DNA of 63,682 nt, the filler included, from Asterionella formosa (lineage: Eukaryota): assembly GCA_002256025.1 (NCBI GenBank). It is 10 parts of 10 records of this genome, joined end to end, with 100 filler letters (N's around TTAATTAATTAA, not from the genome) between each part and the next. Parts side by side here need not be neighbours in the genome. Positions count along the whole stretch, not along the records: positions 22,087 to 23,231 come from NKIB01004112.1; 9 more parts are not named here. One strand, given 5' to 3'. Shown here piece after piece: positions 12,640 to 42,946 of the stretch; within the stretch, counting starts at the first letter, position 1; each line of letters opens with the position of its first letter. The notes under the pieces were generated by a model. The model did not search any database. It was not told the DNA's origin and was given only the letters and a program-made list of their open reading frames with translations. The translations under genes were made by a program, and so were the position numbers.

Positions 12640-15600
12640 CTTGCTAGTTTTTGGTCCTACCCGATTGATTTCCATAAATGACGTGGAGGCATGATGGCAA
12701 CATAAAAATTATCTTTCTGTATCTGTTCCAAAACTTCTTGCGGTCTCAGAGATTTCCTTGGCTTGATTCCTGTGGTTTCAAAGCAGGAACAACAAATGCT
12801 GCCAAAAGTACTTTATGAAATTCAACAACGCTCAATTCAGTTGTATCATTGCATAAGGTATCTCCTCGCTCTTGCAAAAAATATACATTTATGAATTTTC
12901 ATTTCAGTTCAACTTTTCAAGGAACGAATACACGCTAAGAGATTGGTTGTTGTGTTGGAGAAAATAACATTTCCCCAAAGAAGTAGTTTACAGGAACTGT
13001 GTAGGAACTTGATCCATCTCCTTTCTCCCAGTTCAATTCAACCCAGTCAAGCCATTCACGAAAAGAGATTCCTGCATTTGAATCATTATTCCATTTCGGG
13101 TGTCTGATGGCATCTGAAAATAGCATTTTGGCCGGGAACGTTACTTTCAATTTTAACATGATAATAAAAGTCAATCCTTACAATGGAAATAGGCCCAACA
13201 CCATCTTCAAGACTTTTTGTTCTTGCTATTTCTATTGCTTAATTTGCATTGCTCTTTACGTAGTTGGCCCCCTTTGGTAAATCAGGATGAACCAATTGAG
13301 ACAAGGGTGCATCCTTACTCCGTGATACATGCTCAATCTTATTAGGGACACCTGCTATAGTCCGTAGACCATTTGGTGATGAAGCAGAGAATTGAACCTT
13401 AACAGGAAGGGATGGTGAATGGATATTGGTAGCAGGCGATATTCCCAAATTATCATGCAACATACTAGGCAACATCCTTGTATCCGGAATCATTCCTTCT
13501 GTTGAAATACCCTCAGTTACATTGATATGTACTTATGTACTTTACTCATCTTCTTCTGTTTGTTTTCTTTATGTAATGAATCACTTGCAAAAACAAGTTT
13601 TCGTGCCAAGGCAAACTGCCTTGTTGCACATGACCTTGTTAAAATGTCATGCTTTAATCGATGTAATTGTCCATTGACACGCTTACTGGGTCGCTCGTTT
13701 CAATTTGTCTTTCAAAAAAGACTCCAAATATCCACCAAAGAAATTAAGAGGCAATCCGAATGAGGGTAATGTTTCATTCTATGAAATTTCGCCATTCGTT
13801 AGCCAATTTGAGATATCATTTCCCGTTGGGGACCAATCATAATCTTAGTAACTGACATAAATCTCTTAACCCATTCCTCTAAAATATCAATACATGTTGA
13901 TGTATACTGCGGTATGAATAAAGTGTCATTGGTAGATATACATAACCATAACAGCAACGTGAAATCCTTTTCTAGGTGCATGTTCTCTGAACCCATCATT
14001 CCACCCATCGAAAAAATAGTTAACAGACATAATCCAGGGATTTCTTGCCCTGAAAAAATAGTTAACAGACATTATCCGGGAATTTCTTGACTATTGATAC
14101 ATCTAGCTAGCAGCCACTTTGTTCGAAGTATAGTTTCGAAAATACATTTCTGGTGCTGGTATAAGTGTGCGTTGGGTCTTGATTTTCGCCAGTGTAGATA
14201 TTTTTGGTAACTGGTGCTTGTGTCCTTTTTGGTCTTTGCCCGTTTCTTTGGTTGCTCTTGATCAAGAAAAGCAGTGTCTGTTGTTTCAGTGATACGTTTC
14301 GTTTCTGATCAGAGATGTTATCTGGAATATCTGGAGATTTTCTTTCTTTAAAAGAAACATGTCCATTCTTCAGGGATAGTCCGATTGTTGTACAATGATT
14401 CCAAAATGTACTTAAATATTCCAAGTAGAAATTGATGAAGAACCTCAAATGGTGGTGCACCAAATAATCCTTCTCAGTCACCAACAAAAAATGATTTATT
14501 AGTGCAGGCGTAATAGGATTATGCGATATAACACGGCACCACTTACTTGCTGTTGCGTATTTGCCATTAGATTGGGAGACACAATACTCTGATGGGATAC
14601 ATGGTAGTTTTCCATCGGGATATGCAATTTTGTCAAGAAATTTGTTTAAAAACCTTTTAGCATCTGACACTTTACGACGTTCACATCCAATTTCGGGATT
14701 ATCAGCATTTTCAGTTGAAACCAGCAGGCAATCACGACAAACATATCATCGATTTAATCCATTACCACCCCTGAAATCACGAATTTTGTTGTGCTCTTCT
14801 GTATCACCAATGATTATTCCAATCTGGAAATAAACCTTTGTCATACCAAGACCATGAACCCATATATCGTATGACTTGTTTGGATCGCTCTTCGAAAAGC
14901 AGGCGACAATAGAAATCATGGAACAAAATGGTATAATTTGAGTCTACATAAGGACAAGTCGTCACCAGATAACATATTATTCATTTGTTTCTCCAGATCA
15001 CTGACTTCGATGTCTGGCAAAAGAGATACCAATTGCCATTCATCAACTTTTTTCCTTCCTCTCTCTCTAACGCTAAGTTTAACATTGTCGACAAAAACGG
15101 GCAGATGCTCGGAATGTTTCATTTGTTTATCAATAGGTGAACCATCCCACCACTGAAAACTGCTAGGGCAACAAATAAACACCCTGTCTTGCCTTCAACA
15201 CTCCATTTTCTGATGCAGGAGAATTGTTGAATGCATTCTCAAACCAAGTCGCGGAAGTTACTTTGTCATGTACTATGCATGCGTTCTCCACAAGTTGTAA
15301 GTTTCACTTGTGGGTCACATACAAAATGTTGCATAATATCGGAATCACGTAACAATCCTGCCATGAGCTGTACTGGTTAGAAATAATGGAGTGTGCGTGG
15401 GATGATCATTTTTGAATTGTTATCAATCTGTATTTGTCTGGTCAACAGTTGACCACCAGCTAATGTTGGTGGAAATGAAATGCACATCCATGCGTTTTTT
15501 CAAAGTCTGGTAGGATGGAGCTTGATACCTTGCTTCCATCAAAATATTTCATTGCTTTGGCCTTGAACAGCCATTTCATTAGATGATCAAAGTAAACTGG

Positions 15601-16190
15601 TGGAAGGTAATTCTCGTCAAGGAATAAAATGAGTTCTAATTCGATTGGATGCATGTTTAGGAATGTTTACTTGGAAGCTGAAATTGAGGAGGAAGGGGCA
15701 TTTCCATTGCATTTTCAGGGAGAAAGCCGGTGCGATCTTGGAAATCTGAATATTGCATGGTCTCTGAATTCAATCCTTGCATAGTTTTTAGTCTCAATTG
15801 TTCGTCTTGTTGTGACTAAATATTGTTACAAACTGAATCGTCGCTGTCGTCATGAAGTGGATGATTGTGGCCACTTGATTCAAGGAAAGGACACATAATC
15901 TCTTCTTGTTGTCTACTCTCGTCCCTAAATGCTGCAGCAGTTACACTGCCATCATTAACTTCTTTCCTTGAATGATTCGATGCACTACCGCAATACATAG
16001 TTTCATTATGTATTCCAGGAAATCGATGTTCTTGCATGCAATGTCGACAGTGACCATATGCATAGAAAACACGGTTGCTACAATTTCGATTGTGAGACTC
16101 AGATGGGGATTTGTTCTTCCGAAATTTGTAGTTACACAGATAACACCATTTCAATGTACGCAAAGACATTGCAAATTTCAAATAATGACA
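12640..16190 (-). pseudogene. Plavaka-like transposase pseudogene
   Basis: Fragments in order: DGSPIDK..H..PV, WQLVSLLPD, CRLKLYH, GIIIGDTEEHNKI..CRDC, and C-terminal RHPKW..EWLDWVELNW..YTVP. This matches my recollection of the Plavaka layout. Many stops and frameshifts. Confidence 0.6.
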
Positions 16191-22000: not shown

Positions 22001-23107
22001 NNNNNNNNNNNNNNNNNNNNNNNNNNNNNNTTAATTAATTAANNNNNNNNNNNNNNNNNNNNNNNNNNNNNNNNNNNNNNNNNNNNTTTTTAACAGGTTT
22101 TGAGGATGAGCAGTGATGATGAGCTTCTCGATCCTTGGATGGCAAGAGTATACTCTGCAGTAGTAGACAAAATGGTTGTAAATTATGGTAACAATCAGCA
22201 TTATATATGCCACCATCCTTCAGTGGAGACTGTTGACATTGCTGATGTTACTCCTTTGCAAGGAGGAAAAGCATTTATCCATGGGATTCTAGAGCACTGG
22301 TAATAGTTAAGAGGAATAGTTTATGATTTTATGCAGTTACAATGTCCAAATGAATTATTGCTGTTCCATTTTTAATCCAAACACAGTTCCAGTACATTAC
22401 CTTATACTCCCTCACAAAATATACCTACCGGTACTAGTACATGCCGTATGTACACTAGTGAGACATGTATCATCGTGGTACCAGGTACCAGGTGCAATAC
22501 CAGCTTATCGCTCTCGGTGTGAGTGATATGCTGCTTATGATGTGATGCTCGATTTCGACATCAAGCATTACATCCAAGCTGATTCTGGATTCCGTTTCTC
22601 CATATACTCGTGTGTAGAATTTGTCGTATGTAGATGGCTGGTACAAACGGAACACACCGACCTCAGTGTCCGGTAAAATGGTTGTGCAACTCAACTACGA
22701 TCTAGTTCCAGGCAGGTACCGGATAATCGTCCGGGAGAACGCCGTTAAGGTGATCTTCACAGTAACTTCAACCGAAATCACTAGCTTCACCGTGTTCGTC
22801 TTGATGATCAACAGTTCGATCATTTCTCAAATACCGGACGATTGTCCGATGGAGGTACACGGAATCATGGTACTTTGTCCGGTAGAACTGAACTGATGGG
22901 CAATTGCAGGATTGAGTAATCCAAAAACTGTACATATTAAATATACAATATATGTTTTATCTGAAGGGCAATTGGATATCGGTAGTTTGCATCGAGCATA
23001 GAAAATACCGGTATGTAAACTGAAAGGGCAATGTAGTGGTGGAAAGCGCGCCGATAGCTAGTATGTGAATTGCCTAGTTAAGACCATACTCGGGAGGAGT
23101 CTGCCAA

Positions 23108-23231
23108 CTCGTAATCTTGTGTACTTGACTTGGGAGGCCCTCGCAGGTTGACCTTCTCGCAGCGCCGGGGGCGCCACTCGTTCGGTCAACCCCTACTCGC
23201 GCCTCCCAAGCCTCGAACACAAGAATACTCG
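23108..23231 (-). other. Rod-like fold-back structure with periodic CGAG/CGAG internal motifs (structured RNA or ssDNA element), cut by the contig end
   Basis: Nested perfect stems: 23115-22/23217-24, 23129-38/23201-10, 23146-53/23184-91, 23162-66/23170-74. CTCG faces CTCG (once CTTG) in register in every junction. Confidence 0.75.
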
Positions 23232-23331: not shown

Positions 23332-23733
23332 GCCGCCTGGTCGAGCCAGCGGAAGGAAAGCACCTGCCGCCTGGAGCGGCCCAAGTTCGCCATCGACGCC
23401 AAGGCCGGCTCGTTGAAGACCGCGCTGCAGGCCCTGGGCGTGCGCACCGTGTTCTCCGACCAGGCCGACCTGTCGCCCATGCTGGGCAAGGCCGCAGCCG
23501 GTACGCAGGTGGACGACGTTTACCACTCGGCCACCATCGTGATCGACGAGACTGGCGGCGAAGCCGCGGCCGCCACGGCTGCCACGATCCAGGCCAAGTC
23601 CTTCCAGCTGCCGCCGCCGGCCTGCGCGGTGGACCGCCCCTTCCTGTTTGCCATCGTGCACAAGGCCACCGGCGCACCGCTGTTCGTCGGCAAGGTGGCC
23701 GACCCGTCACTCGGCGGCAAGGCCGCCAACTGA
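23332..23733 (+). CDS. Bacterial serpin, C-terminal part
   Basis: ERPKF, hinge DETGGEAAAATA, reactive loop TIQAKS and serpin signature VDRPFLFAIVH...PLFVGKVADP. GC-rich bacterial codon usage. Confidence 0.93.
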   Translation, partial: AAWSSQRKESTCRLERPKFAIDAKAGSLKTALQALGVRTVFSDQADLSPMLGKAAAGTQVDDVYHSATIVIDETGGEAAAATAATIQAKSFQLPPPACAVDRPFLFAIVHKATGAPLFVGKVADPSLGGKAAN

Positions 23734-23807
23734 CGAAACCGATGGCCTTGTCGTCCTATGCACCGTCGGCGCACACCGTGCCCGCCCAACCCACCCAAGG
23801 ATTCACC

Positions 23808-24398
23808 ATGAAGCAACCCCTGATCTCCCTGCTCGCCAGCGCGCTGCTGTTGGTCGGTGCCGCCGCCCAGGCCCAATCCGCCAAGGACATCGTGCTCGAC
23901 CGCGTGGCCGCCCCGGTGGCGCGCCCGGCCACCGCCCCTGCCAGCAACGACGCCATGGCCATCAGCGTGCTGATCGAGTCGCCCGACGGCTCGCTGGCCC
24001 CCAAGTCGACCAACAGCCTGTTTGCCACCGGCGACCGCTTCCGCATCAAGCTGCTGGCCTCGCGCACGGCCAAGGTGTCGCTGTACAACACCAACCCGCT
24101 GGGCCAGTTCAACCCGAAGCCGGTGTGGCAGGGTGAGGTGAAGATCGGCCAGGAAACCATCACCCCGCGCCTGCGGCTGGATGGCAATTCAGGCGTCGAC
24201 TACTTGCACGTGGTGCTCGAGCCCGAGCAGGCGCCCCAGGGCGTGATCTCGTGGATCACCAGCTGGCTGACCAAGGAAGGCTCCGAGGCGCCCAAGGACA
24301 TCCGCCTGGACAGCGAAAACAGCCCCACCACCAGCTACCTGGTCAACCAGACCGGCCAGGGCCTGGTGTCCACCATCCGCATCGTGCACCGCCGCTGA
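23808..24398 (+). CDS. Bacterial secreted protein, possible DUF4384-like domain
   Basis: AAGGA ribosome binding site before ATG 23808. Sec signal MKQPLISLLASALLLVGAAAQA. FATGDRFRIKL...VSLYNTNPLG resembles DUF4384 (family call tentative). Confidence 0.75.
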   Translation: MKQPLISLLASALLLVGAAAQAQSAKDIVLDRVAAPVARPATAPASNDAMAISVLIESPDGSLAPKSTNSLFATGDRFRIKLLASRTAKVSLYNTNPLGQFNPKPVWQGEVKIGQETITPRLRLDGNSGVDYLHVVLEPEQAPQGVISWITSWLTKEGSEAPKDIRLDSENSPTTSYLVNQTGQGLVSTIRIVHRR

Positions 24399-24427
24399 GC
24401 GCGCGCACCTGAAGCGAGACCCACACC

Positions 24428-24466
24428 ATGAAACACCTCTCTGCACTGCTTCGCCGCACCGCCGTG
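24428..24466 (+). CDS. Start of a third co-oriented bacterial gene (signal-peptide-like MKHLSALLRRTAV)
   Basis: ATG about 30 nt after the previous stop, with GAG upstream. Truncated by the contig end. Confidence 0.5.
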
Positions 24467-24826
24467 NNNNNNNNNNNNNNNNNNNNNNNNNNNNNNNNNN
24501 NNNNNNNNNNTTAATTAATTAANNNNNNNNNNNNNNNNNNNNNNNNNNNNNNNNNNNNNNNNNNNNGCCGTTGTTGATCGTATTTGTTGATTTGTATAGT
24601 CGTTGACAATGATGTCAATATTGCTGCCAAGCAATGCATTTCTTGTACTAACGCGCTTTGCTACATTTCTACTACGAGTTCGTATCAGAAGCTACATGAC
24701 GAATACTCAGCTAGAGAGAGTCAATAGTGCTGGAGCAGCGTGGCGATCACGCTTGCTCAGAATGGAATGATCAGGGTTGCTTGTTTGGTGGGCAGCGGAG
24801 AGGAATGACTGTGGTGGAAATACTGC

Positions 24827-25357
24827 TACTGGTGTCAGGCTACTACAGCGATGCGCATGGTTGCAGAAACCAGACCATTTACGCTACATAACGATGTAGG
24901 TCAAGATTGGGTTCTGCTTTTCCCTTCTTATTTCGGTCTTCGATTGTGTGGTGATGGAAAGTGAATGTTGCCTGGTGTGTAAGTACTACAATGATTCACA
25001 ATGCATACGTCTCCATTGGAACTCTTATTTTTTATTTCATTTCTAACCCAAAACAATTTTTTCTATTTCTCATTTGATGCTACTTATTACATCGCATTTC
25101 ATACTTTGGTTGCTCCATACATCATGTTCAATTTTCGTTGATGTTGCATGTTACAATGATTCTTGTGTGTTTTACGCTTGTTGTACCATATCTATGCATA
25201 TTACCGTTATTCTGGTTGTCATGCCGAGAAATTCGATGTGCCCCATATTGCCCTTAAATAAAAATTACTTAAGAAATTATTAAGAGACTGAAAATTACTT
25301 AGAAAGAATGACCCGAATGGCAAGACGATAGCTGGAGCAGGAATTTCTAGTGCACTA
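24827..25357 (+). repeat. Dispersed repeat, copy 2 (matches 1-555)
   Basis: Direct sequence match to the window start. Confidence 0.95.
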
Positions 25358-28278
25358 CATCTAAGCCGCGAAATACGCCACTTTTCGAAATTTGTTCTAT
25401 GTAGGAGTGTTAATTATTTGGTACTTCACATGAATTAATGCCACTCTTCCCGGAGAAAAGGTTACTTTTAACGGTTTCATGTGAAGTTTTAACGGTTTCA
25501 TGTGAAGATTTCACAAAAAACTTTGAACTCGAGACTGAATTAGTTGATGTTTCAAATAATTCATTTCAAAGTTCAACTAAGACCCTGCTCTCGTGGCTAA
25601 TTCATTTACGACATGCATCTTCCTTCGTGAAATAGTAAGGATATTTGTGGTGTCTTAATTCATGCTACCGGGTACAGTTTATGGTTGTGCACTTCACGTA
25701 AATAATATTTACTGTTTTGCTGAACAAGATTACTTATTGTGGTTTTATGTGATGGCTGGTTCACAATCATACAGTTATTTCCAAGGCAGGACTAGTTGAT
25801 GTTACAACTAAAAATTTCAAAAGTTCAAGATAAATTTTTTAGAGGATAAATCATTGCGAAAGACGACTTCACTACAAATTGTTTGATTGCAATCTGCCCT
25901 GAATTGATTGAGCAAAACGGAACGAAATGGATCTCGAGAAATATTGCGACATGATTCGTGAGGATGCAAGCAACAACCAACCCTAATGAGGACAAAACAG
26001 GTACGGAACGAAACATTTAATATTGAATTTTAAATGCTAAACTAAATATCTATTCGAATTAGTCTGTGTTATCGACAGCAAATCTTCGGAGTGCTATTGG
26101 TCATGAATTGATGGAGAAAATCGAAGCAATGTGGTTGTCGGCAAGTGGGTGCATGAAGCATATCAACAATCATCCTTACCATCGATATTGTCAGTATCCA
26201 ATACGAATTCTCTTATTCTTTTACATAAACTATATTTCGTATGAATTCTGAAGATACAAAATATATGGATAACATACCTGGTGTATTGTGAATATGTCTG
26301 GAATGGCATCGTGATGCTGAGTGTGTTGACCTCAGCGAATGAATAGTTCTTGGTATGGTACCTTGGACCAGGTACCGGTATACAAGGCCTACTCAGGGCT
26401 ACTATGATACATACTTCCAGGGCTAGTACCAGGGGAGTAGCTGTTACCTGGTACCTTGTACCTTGGGTCTTTTGACGTTGCACTCAGACATACTAACAAA
26501 TAGCTATACTGTATGGTACCACCAGGTACTCCTGGCTGGTAGGTACCAGGTCATCGTTACAAGTTTGAGACTGTAGGTTTGCCCTACCAGTATTTCCGTC
26601 TTTCCCTTCTTGTTACAATAGGAATTATTTCGTTCGTACTGAGAAACTGTACTCATTTCTACGTGCATACTGTGGAACTGTAGGCTTGCACTACCAGCAT
26701 TGCTTCCCGTATTACCCTTATTACAAAAGAATATGGCATTCGTACTGTGAATACATTAAGAGTAACCACTGGCTGTGTCCTCTCCTTCTTGTCATACCGA
26801 TATTTGTTTAAGGTCACACTTGTAGCATCAAAAAGTTTCCCGACGAAGTAAGACTGCGCCAGGTTTTTTCATGTAGATTGTAGGTTCTGTTGGTACAAAA
26901 ATGAAGTCATGGCTGCGCCAGGATTTTTGACCCTCTGAATTCATAAAGACAACATTTAACCACCACTGTGCACAATATATGTTTTCAACATGGGGACGAC
27001 CCTTAAAAGCAGCATCCCCTTCTAGCTTTTCAGCGCCTCACCATTAACAAATCCTACATCAGCCAAGAACTCACATATTGTTTGTTGAAACAATAGAAGG
27101 TGGAATGACACAACATTGAGATTGTAAGCAATCGATGCTTTCAAGGTAAGATTTATTTGCTTGCTATTTTTGCTATTATATCACCAAGCGAGGGATAACT
27201 CATGATATGTCATGCTTTTGTTTTCAACATTCATTTGACATTTGAACAGGCTTTTTCAGAAAAGCAGTGTTCTTTGGAAAGTATGAGTGATAGCAGATAA
27301 AATGACACAACAATATGGAGACCCGCAATGGAGGCCTTCAAGGTGAGCTTAGTCTTCAGTTTTCATAATTGTATCAGCAAAGCGAGCGATAAATCACATG
27401 GTTCTATTATTGTTATCAACATTTATTTGACATTTTAGCCGTCCATTTCACAACAGGAGCATTCTCTTGAACGTACTAGTGAGTTGTGGTGCTGCCTGGC
27501 TGATGCCAATTTGTTGTTTCAATTCGACTGCCCCAAGAAACAGTTGAATACTACCACATCTGTGTGTTGCTTGCTGCTGTTGCTAGTTCTGTCATATGAA
27601 TTACTGAAACACTGTTGTTTTGTAAATCTTTGCAGGTCAATGAAGAAGTCATTTCAAGGTGAAGAAGGAAGCCAGTGTGTGATGCATTCATGTTGCAACC
27701 TCGTACAATGATGCCTGTTCAAGAGTGAATATTTTTCCTTTCTGAATGAACGGCTTCTCTTCGTCTTGCAGTGTCCTTCCTTACAGATGTCTCATATTGC
27801 CTGCCTTCTCAAGACTGAAGATTCCATTCATCTGATAGAACAACTTGTTTTGATTGCATATCCAGATTTGTTTCCCATGTAATGTGAAATAACGGTACTA
27901 CTAGTTGAATTAGTAATTAACATTATTTGATAGTACTTTTTAATTACATGAACAAAATTACAGAATAACATAAACAAATTTAAAACATTACATGAACTAT
28001 ATTATAGAATTACATCAACAAAATTATAAGGCAATGTGAACTAAATTACAGAATTAATTGAAGTATTTCAAATAATTAAGTGAAGGTGATCACGTAATAT
28101 AGTGTTGATCAGGAGTGCATGCATGATACTCTGATCAAATAATTAACGTGATGTATTCAGATAATATATAGATATTCAAGTAAGCATTTTGATGTATTCA
28201 ACTAATTCATGTGATCCATTCAAAATCAACTAGGCTTATTTACGTGAAGGTCACTTCACGTAATACGCGGCGTAGATG
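25358..28278. mobile_element. Non-autonomous TIR DNA transposon (2921 bp) with TA target duplication
   Basis: Left end CATCTAAGCCGCGAAATACG; right end reverse-complemented CATCTACGCCGCGTATTACG (17/20 match). TA on both sides. No long ORF. A second left end is at 63550-63682. Confidence 0.8.
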
Positions 28279-29189
28279 TAAGCTTTTATGAGGTAACAAT
28301 AAATTTGATCAGAATTTTCGTCATAAAAAATCTGAAGAAACAGGTGTATAGGAAACTGTAGTGATTATTACAGTACCTGGTACCAGGTAGTAATGATTGG
28401 ATTATGCCTCATGCTACCGGTAGTATGGTTTACCTCATTTTAATTTTCTTGTTGACCTTGCTTCGTGCATAAAGTACTAGCTACTGAAACGAGTAAGCAT
28501 ATTGGCAACACTCCTATATCAGGGGTCAGAATAGTGATTTTCTTAGTCATCTTTTTCACTACAAGAACACATATGATTAAAATTCAATTGCCCCCAAATT
28601 GATTTGAAATTTTTATCCGCGACCAGAAAAAAGATTGCCGTGCTGACCCTCGAGACAATTCACAAAACATGCGTGCTTATATAGATACTGTGTCGTATCG
28701 TTGCAAATCTGATGAATGAAATAACCGGGAAAACTAAATAAATTTATTAGCGTAGATTTAGCGGATTTAACCACCGGGACCAGTTGCAAATTCTGCTGAT
28801 TCTTTGGATTTCATCAGCGATGACGTAACAATACCGGTACCTGGTACCTTTCTTCATGTGAAAACGATTAGGGACTGCCTGGTACCGGTACCCGGTAATA
28901 CATTCCGGTACTCGTGAATTATTTTATCGTACTGCACACCAGGGACGATGTACAAATATGAAACTGTCGCTCCAGGTACCAGGGTGCACCAGGGTGTACC
29001 AGGGTACCTGCTACCAGGTACCAGGTACCAGGTACCAGGTACTGGTAAACCAGTAAGCATGTGAAACTGGAAGACGTTGAAAAAAGAAATTTGTCAATGT
29101 GACTTTGCTTCGGCAACTCAGCGGCGTTTTTCAATCATTTTTTGGCGTAATTCTTCGCGCAAGTTGTAATTGTCTTCTTTTGAACTGAC

Positions 29190-32114
29190 ATGTCTGCTTC
29201 ATCTCCGGCTGCTGGTAATGGACCAGTGTTCGCTCCTGTGACGGTTGCTCCGTCTTCGATTGTTCTCAGTGCCCAAGCTCCACTTGATTCAGGTACTCTG
29301 CCCCCAAGTAGTATTTCTGGAAGCGTCTTGATTGACCAGGACGGGGATGGCATTGCAGATGGACCTTTGGCTCAAGTTCTGGTTTCTCTCAATGACGCAA
29401 ACGACTCTCTGATTGAACAAACAAGTACTAATGAAAAGGGCATGTACGCATTCTATGACGTGCCTGCTGGAACCTACTTCGTCAGAGAAACGAACCCCGC
29501 AGGACACGTTGATGTGAGCGATACTTCTGATACGGGCAATACTACCGATAATGAAATCATTGTCTTGATGAATGATGGAGACACTAGAACGGGGAACAAC
29601 TTCATCGATCGTCTCACGGTCGTACAGCCTTCAGTCCCTTCCACCAGTCCTTCGGTTGCTCCAATTTTATCAGCTCCCTCTGCTGCCCCAAGCTCTGCAG
29701 ATGCCAAGATGGGGATTATATATGGTCATGTCTACGTCAAGGACTCCGGCGACCAGACTGCCCATAAGCCACTTGTTGGCGTTGTAATTTCCCTTGTACC
29801 TGACGATACCAGTATCCAGACGGTTCGTGTAGGTACCAACGTTGCTGGGTACTACGAATTCGTGGATGTTCTCCCTGGAAAGTACAAGATCATACAATCC
29901 AATCTTGAAGGCTACACCAATATCAATGACACAGAAGGCGACCCGACTGATGGAACGATCGCAGTGGAAATATCGAACGCTGCCCTTTCGTCGGGCAACA
30001 ATGACTTTGTCGACGCAGCTTCTACCTCGGTGGAAGGGACCAATACAAACAATGACAACGTTCCTGATAGTGCGACACTTTATATTTCAGGGCGAGTTTG
30101 GGCTGATACCGATGGTGATGGAGTTGGTGACGCAGTTTTGTCCGGAGTGCAAATCGATCTAAGGGACCTAGACGGGCACACCATTTTAACTGAGCAAACT
30201 GATGACCATGGCCTCTTTGAATTTTCCAATGTCGCTCCAGCGAAATACCAAATCGTGGAAACTAATCTTCCCGGATATACTGAGGTTTCTGATTCTCAAG
30301 GTGAAGAACTCGATAATCTCATTTTAGTAGATCTCACAAACGGGACTTCGTCATACGACAATTCCTTTACCGACGCACCTCCTCCAAATGTGGTTATAGC
30401 CACGGAAGCCCCTGGAGTTGCACTCTATGTTTCGGGTCGAGTGCAAGCTGACACAAACGGAGATAGTTTGGCTGACGAGGCTTTGCCTGGAGTGATGCTC
30501 GAACTTATCAATTTGGGCACCAATGAAACTCTGTACAAAAGTACTGACGACAAGGGTCTTTTTGAATTCGACGAGGTAAATCCTGGGAAATACAAGCTTC
30601 TCGAAATAAATCTACCTGGTTATACTGACATCTGGGACAGTGAAGGTGACGCTCATGACAGCTTTGTTACATTAGATCTCACAGAAGGAATGTCATCATA
30701 TGACAACAATTTTGTCGATGCACCTCCTGCGAATTTAATTCCCACTGATCCCCCTACTCTAGCGCCGGCCATTGTGACTGGAGAAGTTTTGGCTGACACC
30801 GATGGTGATGGTGAAGGTGATACGCCTTTGTCTGGGGTGGAAGTGCTCCTTATCGATGATGGCGACAATGTCGTTTTTGTTGATTTCACTGATAGTCAAG
30901 GCATCTTCAACTTCACCGAGGCTATACCCACTGGCAAATATCATCTCACCCAAACCAATCTCGCCAACTACGTGGATTTGAAAGACAGCGAAGGGGATCC
31001 CTACGATAGCACTGTCTACATTGATTTTCACGAAGGCACGCCTTCTGGGAATCACCAGTTTGTCGATAGGCCAGTAGCAAGTGTACCATCGGCGGCACCT
31101 TCCAATGACCCAACTGCTGCTTTGCCGGATGTCCCTGGATCTATTTCTGGGAGAGTTTTTGTTGATACCGATGGAGATGGTATCGGAGATGTGCCCTTGC
31201 CTGGAGTCAGTGTCGACCTCTATTCGGAGAACAATAAATTAGAAACGTCAGGAACGGATCAAGAAGGCATCTTTACGTTCTTTGATGTCCCTGCTGGCAC
31301 TTATCAAATTGTCGAAAACAAATTTCAGGGCTATATTGACGCGTCCAATACCAACGGGAACAAGAGGAATAGCACAATTTCCGTGACGCTTAAAAATGGA
31401 GAAGCTTCAGTTGATATAATGTTCGTTGACAAACCAGAAAACGATGGCTCGCCACTTGGTATTATTTCTGGGACTGTCTTTGCTGATTCTAATGGTGACG
31501 GCATCGGTGACCTACCGTTGGAATCAGTAAGAGTGGATCTCCTTGATAGGAATGGTGGTAGTCTTGCAATGGTTGGGACAAGCAAGGAAGGGGTATTTGT
31601 GTTTCATGACATCCCTGCTGGGAGCTACCAATTGACCCACTCCACCCTTCCAGGCTATGAAGTTCTCTCAGATTCCGACGGAGCAACCGACAATCTGATT
31701 CGGATTTATCTCTTGGACGGCAAATCCTCATTGAACAATGCATTTGTCGACGCTGCGCCTCCGGGACTTATCGTTCCAACTATCGCGCCATCTACCAAGA
31801 CTGCTGCTCCTGTTGATTCCCCAAGTGCAGCAGCACCTAGTGATGTCCCTTTCCCTGTTCCTGGGACTGTAGATCCTCCTAGTGTGAAGGCTGTAGAAAA
31901 TTCCCTTGCCAACCCTTATGCGGCCGATACCGTAAGCCAGGATGGCCTCAGCAGTGGTGCTGTCGCTGGAATCGTCATTTTTTCCATTTTTTGCGTTGTC
32001 CTTGTTCATCTCTTCATAAAACGACGACGTTCCATCCGTGGTTCCTCCTCAAGTTCAGTTTCCAGTTTGGCCCCCTTTAGCAAAAACTTCGCCTCTCGTG
32101 GATCCCTTTCCTAG
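29190..32114 (+). CDS. Membrane-anchored surface protein with seven SdrD-B/CnaB-like repeats
   Basis: Seven units of the form ISGxVxxDxDGDG..L.GV.V.L....T...G.F.F..V..G.Y...ETN..GY..DS....N.FVD, joined by P/S/T/A linkers. C-terminal TM helix AVAGIVIFSIFCVVLVHLFI followed by KRRR. Confidence 0.88.
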   Translation: MSASSPAAGNGPVFAPVTVAPSSIVLSAQAPLDSGTLPPSSISGSVLIDQDGDGIADGPLAQVLVSLNDANDSLIEQTSTNEKGMYAFYDVPAGTYFVRETNPAGHVDVSDTSDTGNTTDNEIIVLMNDGDTRTGNNFIDRLTVVQPSVPSTSPSVAPILSAPSAAPSSADAKMGIIYGHVYVKDSGDQTAHKPLVGVVISLVPDDTSIQTVRVGTNVAGYYEFVDVLPGKYKIIQSNLEGYTNINDTEGDPTDGTIAVEISNAALSSGNNDFVDAASTSVEGTNTNNDNVPDSATLYISGRVWADTDGDGVGDAVLSGVQIDLRDLDGHTILTEQTDDHGLFEFSNVAPAKYQIVETNLPGYTEVSDSQGEELDNLILVDLTNGTSSYDNSFTDAPPPNVVIATEAPGVALYVSGRVQADTNGDSLADEALPGVMLELINLGTNETLYKSTDDKGLFEFDEVNPGKYKLLEINLPGYTDIWDSEGDAHDSFVTLDLTEGMSSYDNNFVDAPPANLIPTDPPTLAPAIVTGEVLADTDGDGEGDTPLSGVEVLLIDDGDNVVFVDFTDSQGIFNFTEAIPTGKYHLTQTNLANYVDLKDSEGDPYDSTVYIDFHEGTPSGNHQFVDRPVASVPSAAPSNDPTAALPDVPGSISGRVFVDTDGDGIGDVPLPGVSVDLYSENNKLETSGTDQEGIFTFFDVPAGTYQIVENKFQGYIDASNTNGNKRNSTISVTLKNGEASVDIMFVDKPENDGSPLGIISGTVFADSNGDGIGDLPLESVRVDLLDRNGGSLAMVGTSKEGVFVFHDIPAGSYQLTHSTLPGYEVLSDSDGATDNLIRIYLLDGKSSLNNAFVDAAPPGLIVPTIAPSTKTAAPVDSPSAAAPSDVPFPVPGTVDPPSVKAVENSLANPYAADTVSQDGLSSGAVAGIVIFSIFCVVLVHLFIKRRRSIRGSSSSSVSSLAPFSKNFASRGSLS

Positions 32115-32552
32115 ATCCGAGTTCATTATACTAAAACAGGAAAGCTTAGCAGTTAAAATTGAATCTAGATTGTATTGTCTATGCTACTCTCATCTTGCAA
32201 AGCAGAAGACAGCTCTTTCATTCTGTGCTTGATAGATTTGAGCTGAGTTTGTTGGAGGTAGGTAGCATTGAGTCGATATCACCATTTGCTCCATGTACTC
32301 GCCAATTTCAGACATTGAGATGCGTATGTTCAAGTGGAACTAATGTGTGAAACGATGCTTCATCGATATGCTTTCAAAATCCTAAAATAAATATCAAAAA
32401 CATTTTTATATTTTCAATGATATGTGTACATATTTCTAACGCGTAAAAGCACCTTTGTATTATAATCCTCCAGAAGCAAAGTAAGATTTTTGAACGATGA
32501 GACTGTTCAGCTTCTCTTGTGCCTACAGCCACGACCATAGGCACTACGCAAG

Positions 32553-33659
32553 TCATGCGGCGCGTCCAACACCAACTGGCTGTTCGGGGGGAAATTCTGG
32601 CAGTGCTAGGGGAGGCGAAGTCATCAAATCCTTAATTCCAGAGTCGAAGGCGCCTTTGTGGCCAGACATCTTGAATTGCGCTAGTCCCTTCGAGGCAGAT
32701 AACTTTTGTGAAGCAGAGGACTGTGACAAGAATGAGGAAGGAGTAACCGTCGGAATATTCGACATGCTGGCGGACCGAATGTCATCCAAGATCCTGAGTG
32801 GATGCTCATCGAGCCGCGATACCAGCATGCTGTAAGAAGTCGTTCGCTTCTTGGCGCGAGGCTTCTCATTATCATCTTCGAGTCCAGCAAGCTTGACGGT
32901 ATAAGAGCGACGGACAATATTGGGTTGTCCTTCGTTCAAGGATGCCTTCTTGTTGCGCTTGGACGAGGTGAGCTCATAGTCGTCGTCACTGAGCTCAAAG
33001 TCACCATCGCCGTCCATGTATTCCCCTTCATCCATAACATGGGGAAGACTGGACTGTTTTGAATGAAAAAGATCAACGCTATCTTCATCGTCATCGTTCA
33101 TGTAGGTGAGAATAGGACAGGACCTGTAGAGAGCCTTAGTGTCCGTTTCCTCCAAGCTCGAAAACGATGCCATGTTGACTGAGAGCTGAAATTGAAAGAG
33201 AGATCCAATAATGGAAGATCTCTTTTCATGACCGTGGTCATAAAAGTAAGTCTTCATCTCGTCGTGTCGTCTGCGATGGAAGATTCGATCAGACGCGTGA
33301 AACGAAGAATGCCTGCGCGGCTTACGTGCGGCTGGCGCCTTCGTGATTTCAGTGACAGTGATACTTTGGGCTGTGCTGTCTGAACTGACCGTAGTCACGC
33401 TCTGCAACGATCCTCGTCGTTGCTTTGGTTTGCGAAACATAGGGTCATCAACTTCCTCCTCCAACTCTTGCACAATTTCTTCAAAGATTGACTCGTGCTC
33501 CTTGACCTTGAGTTGGGCTTCGTCAAATTTTACCGACCCTTGCATTTTGGGAGTAGAATCAGCCGCGGCAACACCCAGAAGAGTCAATCGATTCTCGTGA
33601 TCTCTCTCCAGATCTGAAAAGGCCATGCTTCCTTCACGCTGTATACGCTTTGATGCCAT
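32553..33659 (-). CDS. Hypothetical low-complexity S/R/D-rich protein (368 aa from ATG 33659)
   Basis: Long uninterrupted ORF in a gene-dense tract, with several RRxS motifs. No recognisable domain. Confidence 0.7.
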   Translation of the reverse strand: MASKRIQREGSMAFSDLERDHENRLTLLGVAAADSTPKMQGSVKFDEAQLKVKEHESIFEEIVQELEEEVDDPMFRKPKQRRGSLQSVTTVSSDSTAQSITVTEITKAPAARKPRRHSSFHASDRIFHRRRHDEMKTYFYDHGHEKRSSIIGSLFQFQLSVNMASFSSLEETDTKALYRSCPILTYMNDDDEDSVDLFHSKQSSLPHVMDEGEYMDGDGDFELSDDDYELTSSKRNKKASLNEGQPNIVRRSYTVKLAGLEDDNEKPRAKKRTTSYSMLVSRLDEHPLRILDDIRSASMSNIPTVTPSSFLSQSSASQKLSASKGLAQFKMSGHKGAFDSGIKDLMTSPPLALPEFPPEQPVGVGRAA

Positions 33660-34029
33660 GGTGTCGTTGTTGTGTTTTGTTATGTTATGTGATGCTGTGT
33701 TTTGGCAAAGAGGACCAACAGTGGGAGTATAATGCGAACTTTCGGTAAAATACCAGAAATACCGGAAGTCACATTGCTGTTGACACAGCCCGGTGTATTT
33801 TTCGGTCGTGAAAAGCCTACCTAAGGAGCGCAGTACCAAGTACCATGGTGCAGTATCCCGAAACGTACTGACTACCGGTATTAGTATGGATTACATTTGC
33901 ACGAGAGAATGAAATTTCGCCTTCCATTTATGCGGGCTTTATTACTGGACATTCGTAGGCTTCAATCACATATAACATTTTGCATATATATACATTATCA
34001 CTTATAGAGTGACTACAGTATAAATACCA

Positions 34030-34119
34030 GCAAGTTGAGGTAATTGTGTTGAAGCTACATATTTAGCTATCTTTATCAAATATTAAATTGTTTATTTGAG
34101 CAAAATGACCGCAACATGC
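34030..34119. mobile_element. ~90-bp MITE-like element (copies at 54395-54484 and 62980-63088)
   Basis: Termini approximate CAAGTTGCGGTC...GACCGCAACTTG. The core TAATTGTGTTGAAGCTACATATTTAGCT is identical in the first two copies. Confidence 0.75.
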
Positions 34120-34659
34120 AGGGCGTTACCTGGTACCACTCTATGTGTAAATTATACATAAACAAAACATAAATGTCGGTAAGCGTGAACAAGTCACAGC
34201 TAGCTAATACGGTGACCAATCATAAAAATGGTCATCGGCTTGAGTACCAGGTTGATGTACACCGGTATAAGGCACCGATTATGGAACGTACTTTACAAGA
34301 AAAATCCGGCAGGGTACAAGGTACGCGTACTCATTGAAGAAATTACTAAGACAACAGTTGTAGTGGTAATTATGTACCGCAACTACTTGCAGGTACCAGG
34401 AACTCCGGCCTGGTACCTGGTACCGTCCAGATCGGCTTCCATGTTTCCGAACAGGTCTTATGTTTCTACAATAGTGCCGGTGGTACCAGGTACCAATAGT
34501 CTACGTATGGTCAATATCTATACCAATGATATGTAGCTAGAGTACCAGGTACCGGTATATATTTGGCACTGTTAGCCTAAAATGATGAATACTTGTACTT
34601 GATAATCCATCACTCCTTCAGTTCGCTCTCGTAATAAATAGTCCAGTCCAGCAAAAGAC

Positions 34660-35940
34660 ATGGATAAAAAGAAATGGACTTTACTAGGTCAAGATCCTGA
34701 TGTCTTGCTGGCCATGTGGGCCAATTTGGTCTCATGGTTCGTCTCGACTTTCTGTCCGTCCTTTCTTCCTCAGCTGCTACCCTCTTGCGAGCAAGAAGAT
34801 CCCTCGCCCTCGTCCAGCGACCAGACCAGATGCATATCCATAGGTCGACCAGGGGGACTGGAACAACTTCGAGTCGTTTCCTTGAAGCCAAACCTGTGCA
34901 CCAAGGGATACAACCTCCTGGACGGCACCCCGTTTGTCGCCGTGAATCAAGTGCAATCAAGGGACTGCTTGATATTGAGAACCCACGCATTCTCCGTCAA
35001 CTATGCCGACTGCGCCATTCGATGGGGTCTGTACGAGAGTGCCAAGAAATTTGTCGGTTGGCCCATTGTGCCGGGCTTTGACGTCGCCGGGACGGTTGAG
35101 CAAGCATGCGGTGACTTGCAACGGGGAGAGCGCGTCTTTGGATGCACGTTATTTGGGGCCTACAGCTCTCGTGTGGCGCTACCAGCCATCCAAGTGCGAA
35201 GGATTCCATCAAACCTGACCTTTGCGCAAGCCGCGGCCCTTCCAGCCGTTTCGTTGACAGCCTTGTATGCCTTGACTTTGGCAGGTCACGATCCATCTCA
35301 CCCAAACAACTATCGGAACAAGGCTATATTGATTCATTCATGTGCGGGAGGAGTTGGAAGTATGTTGGTTCAAATGTCCAATCTACTTGGCTTGAGCCCC
35401 ATTGTTGGAGTCGTTGGGAGTTCCTCCAAGGTGGAGACTGCCAAGGCTCTTGGCTGTCACGTCGTTATTGACAAGTCAACTCAGGACTTATGGAAGGTTG
35501 CTGAAGAAGCTGCCCCCAATGGTTACTTTACCATTATGGACGCCAATGGTGTCTCCACTCTTCAACAGTCGTATGACCATTTGTGTCCGACAGGCAGAGT
35601 CGTTGTCTTTGGCTTTCACTCGAATCTCCCTCTGGGCCGAGCCATGCTGTCACCGTCGGAATGGATTCGCATGGGTCAAAGAATGAGTGCTATGCCTAAG
35701 TTTGATCCCATGGATCTCGTCGTTAGCAACAAAGCAGTGTTAGGTTTCAATTTGAGTTTCTTTGCGGAAGAAAAGGAATTAGTGAAGCAGCTCTTTGATC
35801 AAATTTGTGACTGGTTGGAACAGGGACTTTTGGAATGTCCTAGAGTAGTTGAAATGGAAATGGACCGCATTGGTGAAGCTCATGACCTCATTATGAGTGG
35901 CAAGAGCGTGGGAAAGATAGTCCTAACAGTTCCGATGTAA
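34660..35940 (+). CDS. MDR-superfamily NAD(P)H oxidoreductase (VAT-1/quinone oxidoreductase-like)
   Basis: SVNYADCAIRWGLY, PIVPGFDVAGTV, GAYSS, LIHSCAGGVGS (Rossmann fold) and GKIVL. Confidence 0.92.
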   Translation: MDKKKWTLLGQDPDVLLAMWANLVSWFVSTFCPSFLPQLLPSCEQEDPSPSSSDQTRCISIGRPGGLEQLRVVSLKPNLCTKGYNLLDGTPFVAVNQVQSRDCLILRTHAFSVNYADCAIRWGLYESAKKFVGWPIVPGFDVAGTVEQACGDLQRGERVFGCTLFGAYSSRVALPAIQVRRIPSNLTFAQAAALPAVSLTALYALTLAGHDPSHPNNYRNKAILIHSCAGGVGSMLVQMSNLLGLSPIVGVVGSSSKVETAKALGCHVVIDKSTQDLWKVAEEAAPNGYFTIMDANGVSTLQQSYDHLCPTGRVVVFGFHSNLPLGRAMLSPSEWIRMGQRMSAMPKFDPMDLVVSNKAVLGFNLSFFAEEKELVKQLFDQICDWLEQGLLECPRVVEMEMDRIGEAHDLIMSGKSVGKIVLTVPM

Positions 35941-35982
35941 TCTTTTCTTTTCATAACTATTTAATGAGCTATCCCAACACGA

Positions 35983-37146
35983 CTAGCCGAACATGTCGTT
36001 CAAATACTTCTTATAAATAGCCATGTATTTCGCGACAAACGCTTCAAGATGAAAAATATCTTTGCTTCCCATGGCCACACGGTGTTCATAAAAGGCGGCC
36101 CATTCTAAAACTTGTGGCTTGAGGGAATCATCTAGATTGACCAAAAGTTCGTTTACCAGAGTCTTGAGAATGACTGAAGCCGGAATGCAATTGACCAACA
36201 ATTCGTAGAGCTTTTCTCTCGCTGCCATGAGACGCTGCGGCGATTGCTCTCTGGTAATTTCTACTGCCAGCTGCTTAATGTATAGTTCCCAATCCGTGCT
36301 TGGAACTGGCATAGTAGCGGTCAAGCCATCGCGTCGTTGTACGTGACATGCTTCCAGCATGAGTAGTGCCCTCCGTAGGTTACGAGAGGACTCCTGAGCA
36401 ATGGTAATGGCGAGTTCATCAGGAAGAGCAATGTGTTCCTTGTTAGCAGTTGTCTTGAGGACAGTGCAAATATCGTCTAGCGTCGGTGCTCCAATTCTGA
36501 TTCCTAGACAACGAGATCTGACCGGATCCATGACTTTGGAAGCCGAGTTGCAAATCAGAACCAATCGACAGGTCGATGCATATCGCTCCATGGTCCGCCT
36601 GAGAGCCGCTTGCGCTTGCTTCGAAAGTCTGTCTACCTCGCTGAGAACCACGACTTTGAAGTCTGCCTTGGTGGTCCCAGACGTCAAATTCTTGTTGGAA
36701 GCCATTTCCTTGATGACTTCCTGTACAACGTAACGATCGTTAATACCAGCGTCACCTGGTGACATTTCAATGTGATAATTGGATGTTATGAGGTTGATTT
36801 CAACGGTTCGGTTGGAGGGGGTTGTAAAATTGCGTTTGTCGAGCTTTAGTTTGGTAGCGCCATTGCCAAATAGTTCTCGCAAAAGTGCCATTACTCGCGT
36901 CTTCCTGCGCAGTGGTGGTGTTAGTGGAAGCTGATGGAGCATGCTGTACTGCTACTTACTAGATACACTTGTCAGTTTCGGACAGCGAAAATTCACAACT
37001 TACTTTCCAGATCCAGGTGGCCCGTACACCAGCAAATGGGGGAGAGTGGAGGGGTTGGCAGCCAATGCTAGTAACCGCCCAGTCGTGCTGTCGTGGTAGC
37101 TTAGCTCGTCGAGCTTTGCCGGGCGATGTTTGTCGACCCACAGCAT
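35983..37146 (-). CDS. RFC3: Replication factor C subunit 3 (yeast Rfc5 orthologue); exons 37146-37004 and 36904-35983
   Basis: MLWVDKHRP, LPHLLVYGPPGSGK|KTR, SNYHIE, QAALRRTME, SRCL, HLEAF. The 99-nt intron GTAAGT...CACTAAC...CAG joins the P-loop in frame. Confidence 0.97.
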
Positions 37147-42844: not shown

Positions 42845-42946
42845 NNNNNNNNNNNNNNNNNNNNNNNNNNNNNNNNNNNNNNNNNNNNTTAATTAATTAA
42901 NNNNNNNNNNNNNNNNNNNNNNNNNNNNNNNNNNNNNNNNNNNNCT

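Follow-up and report, generated by a model that had tools for sequence, protein, structure and literature searches.

Tandem sheared G.A pairs, in which 5'-CGAG-3' faces a second copy of itself, have been described in model RNA duplexes and in DNA duplexes of the form 5'-pyrimidine-GA-purine-3'; to our knowledge, the motif stands singly wherever it is known, be it in an oligomer, in ribosomal RNA, or in a comparable molecule. In kink-turns, tandem G.A beside a C-G pair forms a protein-binding platform that requires a three-nucleotide bulge on one strand. The AAV terminal repeat, a parvovirus hairpin telomere, carries GAGC tetranucleotide repeats that are bound by Rep and exists as flip and flop isomers. 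The locus described here is a palindrome at the end of one piece (22087-23231) of a 63,682-nt stretch of the genome assembly of the diatom Asterionella formosa; this whole stretch, 11 pieces by our count with N spacers between them, is called the window below. A complete copy of the palindrome occurs in the metagenome contig L001, where each junction of the fold is precisely CGAG/CGAG on the minus strand, as in the tandem sheared G.A duplexes, but here with five copies ~16 nt apart on one rod within a genomic repeat. The junctions resemble a kink-turn in having tandem G.A next to a C-G pair and differ from it in being symmetric 2x2 loops without a bulge. Like the AAV terminal repeat, the locus is an imperfect palindrome of similar size with a related tetranucleotide in direct repeat (CGAG/GAGC) and with orientation isomers, whereas the AAV repeats are contiguous and base-paired and the motifs of the rod are spaced and self-opposed. 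Unlike a parvovirus telomere, the palindrome is internal in L001 and in a second metagenome contig, L004; its host is a diatom, and we found no Rep-like gene. The features of the piece are collected in Table 1.

Table 1 Features of the palindrome-bearing piece, in positions of the whole window.
Feature	Position	Strand	Description
Left part of piece	22087-22892		Non-coding, itself repeated; alternative junctions at 22693/22694 and 22894
GGTACCAGGTACC cluster	22477-22490		Idiom common to intergenic regions of the diatom piece 24567-42844
Three direct subrepeats, ~60-68 nt apart	22893-23040	+	AT-rich stretch, each subrepeat closing with a TGA(A/T)GGGCAAT-like box
Outer left arm of palindrome	23046-23107	-	Aligned to L001, L004, and L002; the matching segment there pairs with the right arm
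Nine motif sites, all in direct orientation	23089-23231	+	CTCG at 23089, 23108, 23140, 23156, 23177, 23196, 23212, and 23228; CTTG at 23124
Inner rod, window copy	23108-23231	-	Four helices, apical GC-rich hairpin, four self-facing tetranucleotide junctions

A preliminary description of this locus had proposed a rod of four nested perfect stems, and all four were found where it had placed them (23115-23122/23217-23224, 23129-23138/23201-23210, 23146-23153/23184-23191, and 23162-23166/23170-23174), with the CCC loop of the apical hairpin at 23167-23169. It had also expected the minus strand to pair better, which folding of both strands against shuffled controls bore out. As RNA, 23085-23231 (147 nt) folded at -78.3 kcal/mol on the minus strand (z -7.0) and at -58.8 kcal/mol on the plus strand (z -3.7), while under DNA parameters the two strands gave -37.2 (z -5.9) vs -30.5 (z -3.3). 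Each fold was set against 200 shuffles, none of which was as stable. The minus strand of the inner 124 nt (23108-23231) folded at -73.9 kcal/mol with 45 pairs, five of them G.U; four of these are the A.C oppositions of the plus strand to which attention had already been drawn, and the fifth is additional. GC content was 0.60 in 23085-23231 vs 0.41 in 22087-23045, so the earlier picture of a GC-rich island in an AT-rich contig is right for the island and overstated for the flank, which is only moderately AT-rich. No second hairpin or motif run of this kind was found elsewhere in the window.

The nine motif sites lie exactly where they had been listed. Their spacings, including CTTG, are 19, 16, 16, 16, 21, 19, 16, and 16 nt, and their minus-strand reading is CGAG (CAAG at the CTTG site). 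The plus strand of 23085-23231 contained eight CTCG and no CGAG, against a dinucleotide-shuffle mean of 1.8 CTCG and a maximum of 7, and 0/2000 shuffles reached eight. One strand of the L001 palindrome contained ten CTCG and no CGAG (shuffle mean 2.1, maximum 7, 0/2000 reaching ten), with spacings of 19, 16, 16, 16, 21, 17, 15, 16, and 19 nt that are symmetric around the tip. The motif is direct on both arms at 5/5 junctions of L001, as the preliminary description had stated for the window, and all five are CGAG/CGAG. Its further claim that the motifs face each other in register at four window junctions holds for the facing at all four and for exact CGAG/CGAG at 3/4. The remaining junction is CAAG/CGAG, and position 23126 is C in most related contigs of sequencing run X1, which restores CTCG.

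Read on the minus strand, a junction consists of C-G, G.A, A.G, and G-C, and appears as a symmetric 2x2 loop in the folds; its sequence is that of a tandem G.A motif (5'-GA-3' opposite 5'-GA-3', with C-G on the 5' side and G-C on the 3' side). The sequence and the loop energy make the junctions candidates for sheared G.A geometry. In the ViennaRNA nearest-neighbour model, GA/GA with C-G/G-C closing pairs is tied for most stable among the 256 fillings of a 2x2 loop, and the UC/UC filling of the plus strand is 2.1 kcal/mol costlier per junction.

The complete palindrome spans 255 nt in L001 (530-784). Its minus strand folded at -158 kcal/mol (z -14.1) into a rod of five helices of ~10-13 pairs and an 8-pair GC-rich tip, with a CGAG/CGAG break every ~16 nt; the plus strand reached -129.8 kcal/mol (z -9.1). 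Under DNA parameters the difference between the strands was small (-76.6 vs -69.5), which counts against selection of one strand. The suggestion that the window rod was probably longer than seen is thus borne out by this relative, and its start had been set too far right at 23085, since the outer left arm begins at 23046. This arm includes the CTCG at 23089, and the sequence with which it pairs lies past the point where the piece stops. As had been noted, the window copy is cut, although the end that it runs into is that of the piece 22087-23231. In L001 and L004 the palindrome has at least 400 nt on either side, which does not fit the earlier idea of a transposon or virus terminus.

The locus lies where a short piece ends, and palindromes tend to provoke strand-switch chimeras; both points would be compatible with an artefact of assembly or library preparation, for example a fold-back chimera formed where a contig ends. 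This is already refuted, in our judgment almost beyond doubt, because independent copies exist: the same structure is complete and internal in the independent metagenome contigs L001 and L004, and the palindrome stretch is present in 20 freshwater runs from 12 studies, of which six are RNA libraries, the label of runs listed as DNA being a guessed kind ('DNA?') and the RNA-library data being unstranded assembled contigs that may reflect DNA carry-over. Runs X18-X20, with small word shares, and the low-cover bins at 22984-23022 in X2 and X15 were left out as evidence. Three further assemblies also contain the structure, seen through pseudo-ORFs. Moreover, a chimera would yield a perfect palindrome and not five identical self-opposed motifs.

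The strands also differ in their wobble pairs. The L001 minus-strand fold has 11 G.U among 100 pairs vs one A.C opposition as read from the drawn rod. Six of the seven one-sided stem transitions among variants leave G.U on the minus strand (23128, 23134, 23184, and 23199 among run X1 variants, and two differences between L004 and L001), and one leaves it on the plus strand. This G.U excess could reflect strand-biased C-to-T mutation and not selection. Comparison of the window type with the L001 type shows three A-U/U-A pairs swapped by compensatory changes, one U-A pair lost from both arms together (after realignment by hand), and one mismatch converted into a pair. Pairing is therefore kept in homologous copies through compensatory changes (three swaps and one paired indel), in keeping with the preliminary description. 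Because three of the four readable DNA copies are 91-95% alike, this covariation amounts to one comparison of two types, and the 'compensatory' changes could also arise by arm-to-arm copying at the DNA level.

The palindrome belongs to a large repeat family. A metagenome scan returned six loci, three of which are true relatives (L001, L002, and L004) and three (L003, L005, and L006) chance matches in GC-rich DNA. In run X1 alone we found 5527 related contigs with alternative flanks, 1579 of them at ≥99% identity, 1736 at 95-99%, 1787 at 90-95%, and 425 below 90%, and the flanks also differ among the window, L001, and L004. These are the many dispersed copies of a MITE or foldback element, and the family resembles such elements further in being non-coding and hairpin-forming and in having flipped, tip-deleted, and mosaic copies. 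It differs in that the mismatches of the rod are non-random, the same tetranucleotide facing itself in direct orientation on both arms. In L004 the outer right arm is replaced, with the break inside the palindrome, and both sides of the element are visible in two copies only; as a result no common outer boundary, conserved or marked by a target-site duplication, is definable.

Many copies are flipped, tip-deleted, or arm-replaced, and the family behaves as a decaying genomic repeat rather than a single conserved RNA gene. Much of this would be expected of a palindromic DNA repeat (MITE-, foldback-, or satellite-like) with no single-strand role, whose arms stay similar through template switching or conversion within the palindrome and whose CTCG sites are either bound by a protein in the DNA duplex or left over from a build in 16-nt modules. 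P0129 and P0130 are orientation isomers in which the reverse complement of the L001 right flank is joined to a + oriented rod, and P0131 lacks the tip of the rod. One motif of L002 is reversed, and that junction is identical to the reverse complement of the other arm over 22 nt. Run X1 contains 'opposite strands' joints, mosaic breakpoints occur in the family, and the high copy number, the diversity, and the lack of detected coding capacity fit as well. Arm conversion, however, should erase a self-opposed motif, and this is retained at all L001 junctions and at three of four in the window, the fourth reading CTCG in most related contigs. Direct-repeat sites in a duplex would leave the palindromic spacers unexplained, as they would the choice of a maximally stable 2x2 loop. 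We therefore regard a purely DNA-level repeat as possible but doubtful. At the same time, the intact rod is missing in some copies, which speaks against a selected fold: L004, P0131, and L002 are such cases, and position 23148 is G in most related contigs, which leaves a stem 3 mismatch on both strands.

The remainder of the piece appears non-coding. Its left part (22087-22892) contains no long ORF in six frames, and the reading frame at 22621-22893 had no Pfam match. An HMMER search of 1.84 billion proteins with its translation gave eight matches at E ≤ 0.001; two of them, P0122 and P0123, are close and represent the repeat itself in translation, P0121 had no BLASTP alignment, and the others are weak matches to repetitive proteins, so a coding reading of this frame was rejected. 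GGGCAAT boxes at 22898, 22966, and 23026 stand directly upstream of the palindrome, and L001 (four upstream and one downstream), L002, and L004 carry boxes that agree with these in orientation and position. Alternative junctions of related contigs coincide with these boxes.

Three or four same-orientation boxes immediately upstream of the rod in 4/4 copies would suit the plus-strand leader of a retroelement, in which the GGGCAAT subrepeats are an LTR promoter or enhancer, the rod is the RNA 5' leader, and the CUCG/CUCG pyrimidine bubbles are nucleocapsid-type, dimerisation, or packaging sites. Run X15 contains contigs of 1.7-6 kb that end in single modules of the piece, and one of these contigs (4285 nt) has the rod at 4117-4282 with the long part to the right of the rod; these contigs are assembled and cannot reveal transcript ends or strand. 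Retroelements do occur in this genome, as the window contains a gag-like ORF with a zinc knuckle at 3489-4889 and 1.5-kb direct repeats at 6771-8265 and 14324-16176, but the window retroelement has no sequence in common with the piece 22087-23231. No reverse transcriptase, gag, primer-binding site, or paired LTRs were found on the four contigs (the window piece, L001, L002, and L004), which at 1.0-1.2 kb are too short to exclude them, and the wobble and G.A asymmetry favours the opposite strand. We consider a leader of this type unlikely.

Clusters like GGTACCAGGTACC are also present in L004 and L002. A neighbouring window piece that shares this GGTACC-cluster idiom bears a nuclear RFC gene with 72-77% identity to raphid pennate diatoms, a result that supersedes an atlas comparison of the RFC protein, which had vaguely indicated eukaryotes and giant viruses. 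These observations bear on whether the palindrome is instead non-coding DNA that the molecules of a fragmented organelle genome, or of an extrachromosomal one, have in common; candidates are the plastid hairpin chromosomes of Cladophorales, the cores of dinoflagellate minicircles, and the repeat region of a diatom mitochondrial genome. A preprint on Cladophorales reports inverted repeats, motifs conserved in the non-coding DNA, and many molecules that carry no gene, and gives a GC content of 54-60% for Boodlea (10.1101/145037). The family resembles these genomes in being a heterogeneous mosaic whose members share non-coding modules and hairpins and reach high depth, and in having multi-kb RNA-library contigs that terminate in modules. 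The idiom shared with a nuclear, diatom-like piece points elsewhere, and the GC content of the four contigs is 0.41-0.44, which does not fit the Boodlea range quoted above. No organelle gene, tRNA, or rRNA was found on the four contigs or in the window, and the four contigs have neither an end overlap indicative of circularity nor terminal inverted repeats. Identity with the Cladophorales hairpin chromosomes was rejected because the host is a diatom, the GC content differs, and plastid genes are absent, and for an organelle origin in general we see very little chance. We take the palindrome to be the conserved core of a repeat family that is non-coding, present in many copies, and prone to rearrangement, and that most likely belongs to the nuclear genome of a freshwater raphid pennate diatom.

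Searches of known families returned nothing comparable. The hairpin had no match in Rfam 15 at E ≤ 10 within 22087-23231, as its proposed novelty would lead one to expect; the sole match in the piece, SNORD96 at 22189-22250, is due to chance (E 9.7). There were no matches window-wide at gathering scores and none in L001, L002, or L004 at E ≤ 1. Against a phage collection, blastn gave one trivial 47-nt match only. Exact and degenerate hairpin patterns had no matches in viral contigs and one in prokaryote genomes, L007 from an Erythrobacter MAG, which is a chance match. A pattern of the motif only, with five CTCG at the observed spacings, matched four viral and more than 116 bacterial loci, which are GC-rich chance matches without similarity to the rod. 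The long stable imperfect rod and the ~1.1 kb contigs bring to mind viroids, hepatitis delta RNA, and Obelisks; unlike in viroids and Obelisks, the rod takes up only ~255 of ~1150 nt, it is found in a genome assembly and in runs listed as 'DNA?', and there is no circular overlap and no Rfam ribozyme or viroid family. In the portions of the literature consulted on diatom MITE and small-RNA hairpins, sheared G.A repeats, and Cladophora chloroplast hairpins, we found no description of such an element.

Our preferred reading, for which we judge the chances evenly balanced, is that the rod works in cis within some single-stranded form of the repeat, with the fold selected on the CGAG strand. The palindrome would be built for folding as one strand, giving a near-continuous rod on the minus strand of the window, and the single-stranded form would most likely be a transcript, with a single-stranded DNA intermediate as the less likely alternative. 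The tandem G.A sites, with their regular spacing, could act as docking points for a protein. The G.A breaks would also cap consecutive Watson-Crick pairs at ~13 in a very stable rod. With such short runs it would be cut poorly by Dicer-type nucleases and would, as DNA, fall short of a perfect palindrome. It is in these terms that we infer RNA nature, protein docking, nuclease protection, and mobility for the element. The position of the GGGCAAT boxes upstream on the plus strand weighs against a selected CGAG strand, as the transcript would be the weaker CUCG version if they were a promoter.

A broader proposal, which we put forward tentatively and would sooner expect to fail than to hold, is that this 'G.A-punctuated rod' is a new structured nucleic acid, in which sheared G.A pairs phased at ~16 nt form a periodic scaffold for protein assembly. 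That phase is roughly one and a half helical turns, which would place adjacent sites on opposite faces. One possible use would be the packaging or copying of a mobile element or virus-like agent of the diatom, as RNA or as single-stranded DNA, with escape from double-strand-specific nucleases.

If the locus is merely a decaying palindromic repeat, it would mean that selection or templating can hold a mismatch motif against arm-to-arm homogenisation. The occurrence of the rod in freshwater DNA and RNA-library contigs from 12 studies is of interest, although contigs are no proof of transcription. If a single-strand function is true, this would be a natural helix broken only by five fixed-phase copies of the most stable non-Watson-Crick motif, a design not matched by any of the 4227 Rfam families searched. 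Such a helix would offer RNA and DNA structural biology a ready-made periodic scaffold, and would provide a handle on the poorly known mobile elements and genome defence of diatoms.

The window (63,682 bases) was composed of 11 pieces rather than a single contig, with N44-TTAATTAATTAA-N44 spacers between them; eight pieces measured ~1135-1145 nt and the other three ~18.27 kb. The rod-shaped fold-back occupies the 3' end of a 1145-nt piece, referred to here as the target piece. Every sequence feature named in the preliminary description was found, including the four nested stems, the CTCG positions, and the GC-rich island (0.60 vs 0.41 for the remainder of the target piece). The rod contained eight CTCG in 147 nt and none in the opposite orientation; dinucleotide shuffles averaged 1.8, and 0/2000 reached eight. 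Folded as RNA and compared with shuffles, the minus strand reached -78.3 kcal/mol (z -7.0) and the plus strand -58.8 (z -3.7); with DNA parameters, the 147-nt hairpin had values of -37.2 (z -5.9) for minus vs -30.5 (z -3.3) for plus. The four A.C oppositions noted on the plus strand were G.U pairs in the minus fold, which had a fifth G.U as well. The rod had also been predicted to run past the end of the piece, and it does: 23046-23107 aligned to the outer left arm in L001, a related metagenome contig.

A metagenome scan with a 20-letter stretch of the hairpin returned six loci, of which three (L001, L002, and L004) were true relatives and three were chance matches in GC-rich DNA. L001 was 95% identical to L002 and 91.5% to L004, and the window sequence shared 77-79% identity with these over the palindrome. 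An artefact is refuted by such independent copies, and we assign it a negligible probability. L001 held the complete palindrome of 255 nt, whose minus strand folded as RNA into one continuous rod (-158 kcal/mol, z -14.1), compared with -129.8 (z -9.1) for the plus strand; DNA parameters gave -76.6 for minus and -69.5 for plus. Its plus strand contained 10 CTCG and 0 CGAG (2000 shuffles: mean 2.1, maximum 7). The CTCG spacings (19, 16, 16, 16, 21, 17, 15, 16, 19) show symmetry around the tip, and the motif therefore lies opposite itself at five junctions. A terminal hairpin was ruled out by the internal position of the palindrome in L001 and L004, a kink-turn by the symmetric loops, and a circular rod RNA by presence in DNA assemblies, no end overlap, and a rod making up only a quarter of the contig. 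No Rfam family matched the hairpin in searches of the target piece, window, L001, L002, or L004, in keeping with the preliminary description, which recognized no family.

Features of the window and of the related contig L001
Feature	Position	Strand	Remarks
Target piece	22087-23231		1145 nt
Rod	23085-23231		147 nt
CTCG starts	23089, 23108, 23140, 23156, 23177, 23196, 23212, 23228	+	CTTG at 23124
Rod tip	23161-23176	-	begins TGGCGCC
91-residue ORF	22621-22893		not accepted as coding
GGTACC-cluster idiom in target piece	22477-22490		also in L004 and L002
Reverse-orientation match	1908-1990 vs 22551-22633		84-nt stretch of target piece, 79% identical
Piece with ARM-repeat exon-like ORF	1238-2373		source of the 1908-1990 match
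gag-like ORF with zinc knuckle	3489-4889	-	near the ~1.5 kb direct repeats
Tandem duplication	4898-5816		440 nt
Direct repeats, ~1.5 kb	6771-8265, 14324-16176		85-90% identity, 7.5 kb apart
GC-rich piece	23332-24466		GC 0.68 vs 0.39-0.44 in other window pieces
Diatom piece	24567-42844		
RFC3-like ORF	35986-36942		intron-free
GGTACC(N)GGTACC cluster examples	28836-29031, 34392-34548, 37322-37460		many form short perfect palindromes
Piece with tandem repeat	42945-44079		495-nt period, 99.4% identity, one reading frame open throughout
Complete palindrome	L001:530-784		255 nt
Small perfect hairpins	L001:299-316, L001:868-885		one on each side of the box-rod unit

The junction motif is neither chance nor simple decay. 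It was in direct orientation on both arms at every junction, as previously described, and so it is not a simple inverted duplication, which would give the reverse complement. In RNA, tandem sheared G.A pairs classically form where 5'-CGAG-3' faces itself; the DNA equivalent is pyrimidine-GA-purine. All 256 combinations were evaluated in the four-position loop of a single junction, with the structure kept fixed. GA facing GA, with C-G and G-C as closing pairs, tied as the most stable filling, and the UC/UC junction of the plus strand was 2.1 kcal/mol costlier. The minus fold of L001 had 100 pairs, 11 of them G.U, with one plus-only wobble opposition as read from the drawn rod. Among variants, six of seven one-sided transitions at stem positions left a G.U on the minus strand (23128, 23134, 23184, and 23199 from variants in contigs of sequencing run X1, and two L004-vs-L001 differences) and one left a plus-strand wobble, in a partial tally that used, for contig variants, the best-supported 40 of 99 differences. 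Selection and strand-biased C-to-T mutation would look the same in this pattern. Between the window and L001 types there were three A-U/U-A swaps in stems and, by hand realignment, one U-A pair gone from both arms at once and single changes turning a mismatch into a pair or wobble. As one comparison of two sequence types, this is suggestive of compensation, not statistical. Position 23148 was G in most related contigs, producing one stem-3 mismatch on both strands as in L001, which counts against the structure.

Upstream of the rod, all four copies had three or four direct subrepeats ~60-68 nt apart, each an AT-rich stretch with a TGA(A/T)GGGCAAT-like box at its end; the boxes shared one orientation. 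One extra box followed the rod in L001, and alternative junctions of related contigs coincided with boxes. The small hairpins flanking this unit in L001 are built from GGCAA/TTGCC, a word shared with the boxes that recurs in the rod's outer stems. The boxes could form a promoter for a plus-strand retroelement with the rod in its leader, a reading we find unlikely. The first bases of the rod tip on the minus strand are similar to those that begin retroviral primer-binding sites, which pair with a tRNA 3' end, and this may be a coincidence; the window held no tRNA gene. None of the four contigs (target piece, L001, L002, and L004) had a convincing ORF, and look-alikes of the 91-residue ORF were translations of the same repeat. 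Elsewhere in the window, the ~1.5 kb direct repeats resemble long terminal repeats of a retroelement.

At the level of 31-letter words, the target piece was matched in 20 runs that belong to 12 studies. Their labels were algae, pond, river, lake, or freshwater metagenome, and six of the runs were RNA libraries. We aligned contigs onto the target piece for four of these runs. Run X1 had 5527 contigs on the 1145 nt (1579 at least 99% alike, 1736 at 95-99%, 1787 at 90-95%, and 425 below 90%). Summed word depth per bin was ~2x10^4 to 8x10^5 and individual contigs had depths of ~400-1000, which on a rough reading corresponds to hundreds of diverged copies. Loose ends of contigs clustered at 22693/22694, 22894, 22975, 23013, and 23191/23192, which makes the target piece a patchwork of modules with different joins elsewhere. 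The RNA-library run X15 had contigs of 1736, 2578, 4285, and 6030 nt, each with one module at an end (the rod, in the 4285-nt contig); being unstranded, these show presence in the library, not transcription, strand, or ends. Some repeats were common to several window pieces. The reverse-orientation match at 1908-1990 also points to more than one genomic copy of the left part of the target piece.

Copies were also rearranged. L004 kept the rod with its outer right arm replaced from within the palindrome, and L002 had one left-arm motif inverted, with 22 nt identical to the reverse complement of the L001 right arm. A protein search with a chance ORF through the rod found three pseudo-proteins of other assemblies (P0129, P0130, and P0131), which we compared with L001 by tblastn. 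P0129 and P0130 joined the reverse complement of the L001 right flank to a plus-orientation rod, which makes them orientation isomers or parts of a larger palindrome, and P0131 was a copy without the hairpin tip. Such rearrangements are known behavior of palindromic DNA and show that many copies are not intact. A palindromic repeat acting only as DNA, with the motif as a duplex binding site or relic, is thus a possible though doubtful explanation: palindromic genomic repeats behave similarly, but the mismatch design of the rod differs and was not met in described cases. The available portions of the literature on related hairpins and repeats held no description of such an element.

Among named sequences, those that best matched the RFC3-like ORF of the diatom piece came from raphid pennate and other diatoms (Seminavis robusta 76%, Amphora coffeaeformis 72%, and Mayamaea pseudoterrestris 71% identity). 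Other intron-free ORFs on this piece encoded a 974-aa SdrD/CarboxypepD-repeat protein, a zinc-type alcohol dehydrogenase, and a TylF-type methyltransferase. Between the ORFs, intergenic regions carried dense GGTACC(N)GGTACC clusters (32 GGTACC in 18 kb) that may act as promoter or terminator signals in the diatom. The idiom recurs in the target piece, and from this sharing, not from linkage, we infer that the target piece probably belongs to the nuclear genome of this freshwater diatom. A common region of an organelle or extrachromosomal element is very improbable. The Cladophorales plastid chromosome, as represented in the available part of 10.1101/145037, was ruled out by host, GC content, and lack of genes. 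The GC-rich piece may come from another organism, given a GC content far from that of the other pieces.

The rod is real and strongly structured; it is unannotated, and its periodic arrangement of G.A motifs is unusual. We consider it an even call that it is a cis element that functions single-stranded in the CGAG polarity, with RNA the likeliest form, within a repeated, probably mobile element. The tandem G.A sites would serve as docking points at regular spacing, and they would keep such a rod very stable, yet with no run of Watson-Crick pairs longer than ~13. From helix geometry, the sixteen steps per module would come to ~1.5 turns, placing neighboring sites on opposite sides of the rod.
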